From Escherichia coli (GTDB lineage: Bacteria; Pseudomonadota; Gammaproteobacteria; Enterobacterales; Enterobacteriaceae), in the NCBI RefSeq assembly GCF_003334765.1, contig NZ_QOWT01000104.1: a stretch of 720 nucleotides of DNA; one strand, given 5' to 3'. Shown piece by piece: positions 1-720 of the stretch (position 1 is its first letter; every line of letters begins with the position of its first letter). Made by a program: the position numbers and the translations under genes. The notes beneath the pieces are model-generated. The model worked only from the letters and a program-made list of their open reading frames with translations. It had not been told where the DNA came from and did not search any database.

Positions 1-363
1 CTCCAGTGACCGGTACCATGTATCACGGGCCTGTGCATCCATTAAGGAAAGCATCCCTGAACGTTGCATCAGGTCACGCCAGATTTCGCGATCGAGATTG
101 CGTGTGATGGCTTTCATTGCGGTTTCCGGTTTCTCCATCAGCCAGCAGCCGCAGCGAAAATCCTGTTTCATGGCCCAGTCCGGGGCGGCTTTACCGCCAA
201 TACTTTCTGTCATTGCTGATATTTCAGCCAGTTGCCGGATAAGTGTGTCGATTTGCAGCAGTGTACTCTTTCGTACAGCCAGAATGTGGCGGATACTGGT
301 TGAGCAGATAACGTCCGTATGCCCGGTGACCACTTCCGGACGGGAGATTGTGATGTCTGACAT
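1..363 (-). CDS. hypothetical protein, N-terminal 121 codons (3' end truncated by window left edge)
   Basis: Same minus frame has no stop codon anywhere from 447 down to 1. First ATG after the upstream stop is at 363..361, preceded by AAAAGGGAAACCGATA (AGGG about 9 nt upstream). Translation begins MSDITISRPEVVTGHTDVICSTSIRHILAVRKSTLLQIDTLIRQLAEISAMTESIGGKAAPDWAMKQDF... with balanced, protein-like composition. Not listed in the ORF track because it has no in-window stop. Confidence 0.6.
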   Translation of the reverse strand, partial: MSDITISRPEVVTGHTDVICSTSIRHILAVRKSTLLQIDTLIRQLAEISAMTESIGGKAAPDWAMKQDFRCGCWLMEKPETAMKAITRNLDREIWRDLMQRSGMLSLMDAQARDTWYRSLE

Positions 364-372
364 TATCGGTTT

Positions 373-377
373 CCCTT
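373..377 (-). promoter_or_regulatory. Shine-Dalgarno (ribosome-binding site) for the downstream minus-strand CDS
   Basis: Minus-strand sequence AAAAGGGAAACCGATAATG; the AGGG core sits about 9 nt upstream of ATG 363..361. Confidence 0.5.
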
Positions 378-384
378 TTGGTTT

Positions 385-419
385 ATAAACGAAAACGCCA
401 GCCCTGTTCAGGCTGACGT
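385..419 (-). terminator. candidate Rho-independent terminator after the upstream minus-strand CDS
   Basis: Minus-strand RNA ACGUCAGCC[UGAACAG]GGCUGGCGU forms a 9-bp stem (one G-U wobble, 6 G-C pairs) with a 7-nt loop, followed directly by UUUCGUUUAU. It begins 28 nt after the TAA stop at 450..448. The plus-strand equivalent has a C-A mismatch and no T-tract, so the signal is strand-specific. Hand-folded; no energy computed. Confidence 0.4.
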
Positions 420-447
420 CAGTGGAATGAAGTATGGTGAGTGATAT

Positions 448-720
448 TTACCGGTTCTGGTGCAGAAGCTGCAGATGACGAAGAGTACGGACATCCTCCC
501 GGGCCTGTTCGATACAGGGCAACAGTGCTACCGAATCCGTTTTATCCTCATCGTTGTCAAAGATAATTCCCGATTCGCAGTCGATATTGTCCTGCAGCCA
601 CGCAATGAGGATATCCAGCGCTGTTTCAGTGGTTAATGGCATCACGCTCTGTATCACTGTATTGTCTTCCGGCAACTGATGAGGGCTGGCAGAAGTCGCC
701 GGTGTTTCGGTAGCGTCACG
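448..720 (-). CDS. hypothetical protein, C-terminal part (5' end probably beyond window right edge); Pro/Ser/Thr-rich segment followed by a strongly acidic ~64-aa tail
   Basis: Minus-strand frame with codons at plus positions 1 mod 3 is open from the window edge at 720 to TAA at 450..448. The track's TTG start at 675..673 is not a boundary: the frame continues upstream as ...RDATETPATSASPHQLPEDNTV.... Composition is protein-like and CTG/GAA/CCG-rich codon usage is typical of Enterobacteriaceae. Internal ATG at 642..640 has only a weak Shine-Dalgarno, so the true start is probably outside the window. Confidence 0.55.
   Translation of the reverse strand, partial: RDATETPATSASPHQLPEDNTVIQSVMPLTTETALDILIAWLQDNIDCESGIIFDNDEDKTDSVALLPCIEQAREDVRTLRHLQLLHQNR

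Follow-up and report, generated by a model that had tools for sequence, protein, structure and literature searches.

The open reading frame shared across the DUF957/DUF4942 junction of an Escherichia coli island very probably joins two separate genes by chance over a terminator-like spacer

Two genes share one open frame across an 84-nt spacer

We analyzed a 720-nt stretch of Escherichia coli DNA (RefSeq assembly GCF_003334765.1, contig NZ_QOWT01000104.1), hereafter called the window, the minus strand of which carries the end of a gene encoding a DUF957 protein and the beginning of a gene encoding a DUF4942 protein in the same frame, with one stop codon and an 84-nt spacer between them. The two are very probably separate genes with a terminator-like spacer, and the open frame that they share is very probably a matter of chance. 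The length and frame of the spacer vary among orthologous loci, its substitutions are of a non-coding type and its hairpin is conserved, all of which supports the two-gene reading favoured by an initial annotation of the window. The features on which the analysis turns are as follows.

448..720, minus strand: 3′ part of a 140-aa upstream gene (DUF5983_N, linker and DUF957), which starts 150 nt past the window edge
448..645, minus strand: DUF957 coding sequence according to RefSeq and the Prokaryotic Genome Annotation Pipeline (PGAP), 65 aa with a GTG start at 645..643 (WP_085949090.1, homologues, third-position excess)
448..450, minus strand: TAA stop of the upstream gene (translation, alignment of copies)
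364..447, minus strand: non-coding spacer of 84 nt, equal to 28 stop-free codons (translation, substitution pattern, orthologues)
394..420, minus strand: GC-rich stem-loop GACGTCAGCC-TGAAC-AGGGCTGGCGTT with 11 pairs, 6 of them G-C (fold, terminator scan, covariation)
384..393, minus strand: T-rich tail TTCGTTTATA right after the stem (terminator scan)
372..377, minus strand: Shine-Dalgarno (SD)-like AAGGGA, 8 nt before the DUF4942 ATG (read from the sequence)
1..363, minus strand: first 121 codons of the 280-aa DUF4942 gene, continuing past base 1 (WP_001280493.1, Pfam PF13708)

The translation of minus-strand frame 1 reads ...LQLLHQNR, stop, ISLTILHSTDVSLNRAGVFVYKPKGKPIMSDITISRPE..., or in a longer rendering LQLLHQNR, stop, ISLTILHSTDVSLNRAGVFVYKPKGKPIMSDITISRPEVV.... 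Behind the TAA at 450..448, 28 sense codons (447..364) lead to the in-frame ATG at 363..361, from which the DUF4942 frame stays open to base 1 of the window; the initial annotation had described this arrangement and placed it correctly. In the other direction no stop interrupts the same frame between the TAA and base 720, nor, in the source genome, over a further 150 nt up to an ATG. The source-genome reading frame begins at L001:5851, L001 being the locus of E. coli 55989, where a cbeA/cbtA toxin-antitoxin island has the window at its far end, and comprises 449 consecutive codons with one stop. Translated in the shared frame, the spacer includes the peptides ISLTILHSTDVSLNR and AGVFVYKPK, and both of its remaining minus-strand frames contain stops. 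Given the frame, the probability that 84 nt are free of stops was 0.21 for the shuffled spacer, 0.28 for the window composition and 0.37 under a first-order Markov model; multiplied by one third for the sharing of the frame, this gives a chance of ∼0.07–0.12 for an in-frame open spacer. Such a spacer is thus no more than chance readily yields, in line with the earlier remark that it was not improbable.

A conserved hairpin with terminator anatomy occupies the spacer

We conclude that the spacer is non-coding, contains a conserved structure and is built like an intrinsic terminator; its hairpin would act as a Rho-independent terminator. The stem-loop at 420..394 folds with –18.1 kcal/mol (z = –4.7), which none of 200 shuffles matched. 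Both this terminator-like hairpin of 11 pairs and the separate SD motif AAGGGA at 377..372, which the initial annotation had taken as signs of two genes, are real. The last stem pairs are themselves G-T/T, and the T-tract is interrupted by C and G.

We scanned other genera with one genome per species and obtained 36 loci. In all genera examined, the inverted repeat, followed by T-tract, SD and ATG, lies ∼20–35 nt before the DUF4942 ATG whatever gene stands upstream, with the T-tract on the gene strand only in all loci and an AAGGA or GGAG motif at the equivalent SD position in other genera. The arrangement in many genera is ..CGCCAGCC-CTCACC-GGCTGGCG-TTTTGCTTTATATAAAGGAAAG..ATG, and that in the window is GACGTCAGCC-TGAAC-AGGGCTGGCGTT-TTCGTTTATAAACCAAAAGGGAAACCGATAATG. 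Stem, T-tract and SD-ATG are kept even where the upstream gene ends like a CbtA toxin instead of DUF957. Fold energies across loci range from –13.4 to –18.9 kcal/mol (z = –3.4 to –4.7).

The stem varies in a paired manner. CAGCC/GGCTG is replaced by CAAC/GTTG in Yersinia and by CAGTC/GACTG in Tenebrionibacter, and CGCC../..GGCG by CACC../..GGTG in Cedecea with the pairing kept, while Serratia has an unrelated stem at the equivalent site. Among 29 sequences from many genera, 88.9% of cells were paired, compared with 24–46% when the partners were slid by 1–3 columns; double (compensatory) changes occurred in five of nine stem pairs, and the observed covariation score was reached by none of 500 shuffles. 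The RNAalifold consensus retained only 5 stem pairs because the Serratia and Yersinia rows were shifted, and the full 9-pair stem was therefore counted directly. An Rfam search of the window at permissive E-values returned only two chance snoRNA-like matches (E = 4.5 and 5.6), both outside the spacer.

A sigma-70-like match at 389..362 was considered as a promoter for DUF4942 and rejected, since its –10 hexamer overlaps the ATG and one match was found where 0.6 was expected. Apart from the DUF4942 junction, a near-identical second hairpin, GCCAGCCCTGACCGGCTGGC followed by TTTTTT, adjoins another ATG in a Raoultella island (L035:871-890), ∼2 kb upstream of the DUF4942 gene of that locus, which suggests that a module in which a terminator abuts the next start recurs within islands.

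The spacer does not evolve like coding sequence

We aligned 17 E. coli-type copies, namely the window, Escherichia albertii, three metagenome contigs, two contigs of metagenome-assembled genomes (MAGs), which were E. coli-like, and ten complete genomes spread over 67–95% identity. Across 14 copies, variable columns at codon positions 1, 2 and 3 of DUF957 numbered 9, 10 and 25 and the corresponding diversity was 0.052, 0.038 and 0.145, whereas the spacer read in the shared frame had 7, 9 and 6 variable columns (14 copies) and no excess at the third position. Under the DUF957 pattern, the probability of at most 6 of 22 changes falling at position 3 is 0.005 (Fisher's test, P = 0.036). Conservation of spacer codons 364..447 at the protein level, which the initial annotation had proposed to look for, is thus absent. 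Most of the variation in the spacer falls within the first 28 nt or in the stretch from the T-tract to the ATG; the hairpin varies least, at 5 of its 27 columns. The constraint on the hairpin hits all three codon positions and is therefore not a protein constraint. As far as these substitutions tell, the spacer does not evolve like coding sequence. For DUF957, by comparison, the substitution pattern and the conservation across genera, where tblastn homologues were found at 63–92% identity, indicate a real coding gene.

At the stop position, TGA is found in 13 of the 17 aligned copies, a sense codon (TGC or TTA) in the three metagenome contigs and TAA in the window only. The variable 5′ part of the spacer also contains a 12-nt tandem duplication (TCTCACTCACCA-like) in L042 (614-709), L038 and L040, at a site corresponding approximately to the boundary between window positions 434 and 433, which gives a spacer of 96 nt with the frame kept. 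Another copy, L044, has an extra premature TAA seven codons before the DUF957 stop.

Orthologous loci differ in gene order, spacer length and frame

DUF957 was located immediately upstream of DUF4942 in only ∼12 of the 36 loci. Spacers and frames were as follows.

E. coli and E. albertii: 84 nt, in frame with DUF4942
Four Enterobacteriaceae loci: 78 nt, in frame
Mixta L006: 75 nt, in frame
Tenebrionibacter L015: 81 nt, in frame but with an in-frame TAG
Yersinia alsatica L005: 79 nt, out of frame
Mixta L014: 80 nt, out of frame
Edwardsiella L028: 80 nt, out of frame
L032: 49 nt, out of frame
L043, a divergent E. coli allele: 80 nt, out of frame

In Hafnia and Lelliottia (L010, L011 and L030), DUF957 lies 0.9–1.2 kb upstream of DUF4942 with intervening open reading frames (ORFs), and no DUF957 was found in Salmonella arizonae, several Yersinia, Serratia, Rahnella, Cedecea and others. 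The gene preceding DUF4942 in Yersinia and Serratia ends in ...IAVYQ..., which resembles the C-terminus of a CbtA-type toxin. Across loci, the nearest in-frame stop upstream of the DUF4942 ATG is 6 to 237 nt away, and neither the frame relation nor the absence of stops is conserved among the orthologues. The initial annotation had held that orthologues showing two genes with a variable-length, non-coding-like spacer and frame shifts would speak against a split gene or readthrough, and this is largely what the loci display, with spacers of 49–81 nt, frame shifts in L005, L014, L028, L032 and L043, and the TAG in L015.

Fused frames are rare stop-loss derivatives

Using an artificial fusion of DUF957, glutamine in place of the stop, the translated spacer and DUF4942 as a query, we searched a collection of 5.8 billion proteins. 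Three of the best 120 of 2,170 matching clusters covered 99% of the query and the rest covered 75% or less; by our estimate, a fusion diverged to ∼65% identity would still rank among the best 120. All three are singletons encoded on ENA metagenome contigs, with lengths of 378 aa (L038), 378 aa (L040) and 375 aa (L039), and each contig has cbtA and a full DUF5983 gene upstream. The DUF957 stop is replaced by TGC in L038 (1183-1185) and at the same junction in L040, and by TTA in L039 (1696-1698). L039 has CGG TTA GTC and L049, an allele identical but for this codon, has CGG TGA GTC; L038 and L040 read CGG TGC GTC within the allele with the 12-nt duplication, which in L042 has its TGA intact. 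Because the spacer is open, a one-base loss of the stop at once yields a fused frame of 375–378 aa.

Queries of 60 nt across the junctions matched 192 and 96 complete genomes at 95–99% identity, with the top matches listed differing by one base, and 40-nt queries centred on the changed base found neither stop-loss context in any of the 5,426 complete E. coli genomes. As a positive control for the latter, the exact 40-nt context of the window TAA was present in 516 complete genomes. No fusion was seen in the 36 loci from other genera. The possibility raised at the outset, that some orthologue carries a sense codon at 448..450 and a single fused ORF, thus holds for three metagenome contigs, the two stop-loss contexts of which are absent from the 5,426 complete genomes. 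A single record at ≥99% for the 60-mer of the TGC allele was taken as a partial match, as it ranked below full-length matches at 98.3%. Proteins of 186–189 aa labelled 'DUF4942', obtained from a cluster look-up of the 140-aa protein, were also inspected as possible fusions and turned out to be DUF4942 variants with an internal deletion. By these comparisons, the fused frames are rare and recent stop-loss derivatives and not the ancestral or common state.

Weighing of alternative explanations

If the two genes are separate, the 84 nt would consist of ∼27 nt of variable 3′ untranslated sequence, the conserved hairpin with its T-tract, and then the ribosome-binding site and ATG of DUF4942. The hairpin would end, fully or partly, the transcription of the upstream toxin-antitoxin module, and DUF4942 would probably be expressed mainly by transcripts reading through the hairpin or from another promoter. 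Low divergence among the E. coli copies would explain why the shared open frame persists. Several observations weigh against this reading. A standard promoter cannot fit between the T-tract and the DUF4942 ATG. All sampled E. coli-type copies, with spacers of 84 or 96 nt, are in frame and free of internal stops, and the 75- and 78-nt spacer types of other genera are also in frame and open. Open in-frame spacer types are commoner than independent draws predict, the types not being independent because they share the block of hairpin, T-tract and SD. In addition, L038 and L040 were obtained from separate samples and a few bases distinguish them, from which it follows that the stop-loss lineage is real and tolerated.

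The existence of fused frames of 375–378 aa on three metagenome contigs, together with the single stop between the two frames and the open spacer, would also be expected if an ancestral DUF957-DUF4942 gene had been split by a nonsense mutation that left the spacer as a former linker. However, DUF4942 occurs without DUF957 in many genera with the same hairpin upstream, DUF957 also stands ∼0.9–1.2 kb away from DUF4942 (L010, L011 and L030) and several lineages have a different frame. The substitutions in the spacer are not of a coding type, the core of the spacer is a stem with compensatory changes, as expected of a constraint on nucleic acid rather than protein, and the fused alleles are one base from TGA alleles present in 96–192 complete genomes. 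A split gene is already largely refuted on these grounds, and we consider it extremely improbable. Low-level or programmed readthrough, by which a functional DUF957-DUF4942 fusion would be made beside the separate products, draws on the same in-frame, stop-free spacer of every sampled E. coli-type copy, on the tolerance of stop-loss alleles in nature and on the TGA of 13 of the 17 aligned copies, TGA being the leakiest stop codon in E. coli. In the window allele, nevertheless, the stop is TAA followed by A; UAA is recognized by both release factors and leaks least of the E. coli stop codons. Moreover, frame and openness are not conserved beyond the E. coli-type copies, no protein-level constraint acts on the spacer, many transcripts would probably end at the terminator-like hairpin before the DUF4942 start, and no readthrough-promoting motif was identified, nor any family match in Rfam. 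We therefore regard functional readthrough as very improbable, and basal readthrough of 1e-4 to 1e-3 would give the junction no special status.

The hairpin itself might serve regulation or processing, as a conditional attenuator of DUF4942, a protective 3′ end for the upstream mRNA or the 3′ end of a small RNA that originates in the 3′ untranslated region. Its stem is near-identical across genera in which the DUF4942 proteins are only ∼60–70% identical, it is always 20–35 nt from the DUF4942 ATG whatever the upstream gene, and its U-tract is able to pair with the purine-rich SD stretch when a wider region is folded. On the other hand, a GC-rich stem with a U-tract on the gene strand only is a textbook intrinsic terminator, Rfam gave no match, the consensus fold contains no alternative conserved structure, and the strong conservation could reflect recent horizontal spread of the islands; such a role is possible but unlikely. 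The more specific combination of a conditional attenuator that couples DUF4942 to read-through from cbeA/cbtA with stop-loss or readthrough DUF957-DUF4942 products is quite improbable, and, if true, would be a hint that the DUF957 and DUF4942 proteins act together.

Under the preferred reading of two genes with a terminator-like spacer, the tempting pattern of one stop in 449 codons would mark neither a broken gene nor a recoding site. Both genes are already annotated and the finding is ordinary: the two-gene annotation is confirmed for the DUF957/DUF4942 junction, and the significance of this is small. The conserved hairpin before DUF4942 across Enterobacterales does raise the question of how a widespread, uncharacterised gene is expressed.

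Genomic setting and neighbouring genes

Many E. coli chromosomes, among them those of 55989, 042, E24377A and O104:H4 strains, match the window with 100% identity. Related copies were found in 4,898 of the 5,426 complete genomes of the species (median, three per genome), ∼14,000 copies in all. The island of strain 55989 has the order DUF932, antirestriction, radC, DUF987, cbeA, cbtA, DUF5983, DUF957 and DUF4942, and is followed by the core genes yghD/gsp on the opposite strand. The island is integrative and CP4-44/CP4-57-like, and its last two genes are those covered by the window. In the RefSeq annotation of this genome, a DUF5983 gene labelled 'DUF5983 family protein, incomplete, missing C-terminus' directly precedes the DUF957 gene (window 645..448), which is followed by the 84-nt gap and the DUF4942 gene (window 363 onward, 280 aa).

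The DUF4942 protein matched Pfam PF13708 with E = 5.5e-66 (residues 87–275, model 1–189 of 190), and its N-terminus MS(D/E/A).. is conserved across genera. DUF957 is the RefSeq name; the 140-aa sequence had no DUF957 match in the Pfam-A copy that we searched, and neither it nor the 65-aa sequence (L001:6076-6270) had one in NCBIfam. The family may have been withdrawn or transferred to AntiFam. None of the three proteins had a match in NCBIfam or PADLOC. Our literature search on the DUF names returned mentions in gene tables and one preprint on the neighbouring DUF5983 junction.

The singleton NCBI proteins P0004 (308 aa) and P0006 (313 aa) contain tandem duplications of the IWRDLMQRSGMLSLMDAQARDTWYRSLE segment or its neighbourhood; the duplicated DUF4942 segment corresponds to window 1..84 on the minus strand (residues 94–121). 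In 'Ybl125' variants of DUF4942 with 186–189 aa, roughly residues 26–118 are deleted internally. The N-terminal part of DUF4942 seems prone to rearrangement.

The upstream gene joins DUF5983_N to DUF957

L001:5851-6273 forms a single 140-aa frame, the start of which overlaps the cbtA stop. Its residues 4–57 matched the full model (1–56) of Pfam DUF5983_N (PF25638) with E = 1.2e-27. Nucleotides 1–156 of the gene correspond by homology to the beginning of standard DUF5983 genes, nucleotides 233–421 to DUF957, and 351 nt of the standard alleles, comprising the DUF5983 C-domain, its stop and the SD and start of DUF957, are replaced by 76 unrelated nt. PGAP annotates this region as a 'DUF5983 pseudogene' plus a 65-aa DUF957 that starts from a GTG with a weak ribosome-binding site. 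The exact 140-aa protein has been called on at least 961 contigs, where older records name it 'Aec78' or hypothetical, and a literature search on Aec78/Aec79 returned only unrelated papers. A 121-aa ORF of Hafnia alvei has the same two-domain architecture, with 52% identity from end to end (E = 2e-40), because of which the architecture is recurrent and probably functional. DUF5983_N-DUF957 is thus probably one intact two-domain gene rather than a product of decay.

The DUF957 frame is open upstream for 3–138 codons depending on the locus. Stretches of 107–138 open codons overlap the DUF5983 C-domain in another frame in E. albertii (L002:2347-2916, 138 codons) and L039, and elsewhere the open stretch is 3–46 codons. 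A long open DUF957 frame was considered as a sign of programmed frameshifting and rejected as lacking general support, since its length is not conserved.

Comparison with known systems

A table of the Shigella SRL island lists orf54 (L0008/YeeW), orf55 (L0009, DUF957) and orf56 (L0010, DUF4942) as separate ORFs (PMC6980539). The window resembles L0009/L0010 of enterohaemorrhagic E. coli (EHEC) and orf55/orf56 of Shigella SRL in the order toxin, YeeW/DUF5983, DUF957 and DUF4942 (PMC6980539). Unlike in EHEC and Shigella SRL, the window allele lacks the DUF5983 C-terminal domain and has DUF5983_N joined in frame to DUF957. A small domain, ANF00264 (AntiFam), has been described as encoded just after DUF5983 beside cbtA/cbeA, either fused to DUF5983, separate or beside a 'DUF5983 incomplete C-terminus', and a programmed frameshift was proposed for it (bioRxiv 10.64898/2026.06.09.728211). 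These three annotation situations match those of DUF957 here, and from this context ANF00264 may be DUF957. The proposed frameshift junction, on the DUF5983 side, differs from the DUF957/DUF4942 junction.

The hairpin is like Rho-independent terminators, partial ones within operons included, in that a GC-rich stem of 9–11 pairs with a short loop is followed by a U-rich tail, on the transcribed strand only, and in that it sits after a stop codon and is kept by compensatory changes. Unlike in typical terminators, the U-tract of the window is interrupted (UUUUCGUUU) and the ribosome-binding site of the next gene follows within ∼15 nt. With stop-loss fusions and readthrough systems, the junction shares a lone stop between in-frame ORFs and the occurrence of natural alleles of 375–378 aa. 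It differs from them in that there is no sign of selection for a fused product, the spacer is non-coding as judged by its substitutions, the frame is not conserved and the stop is TAA.

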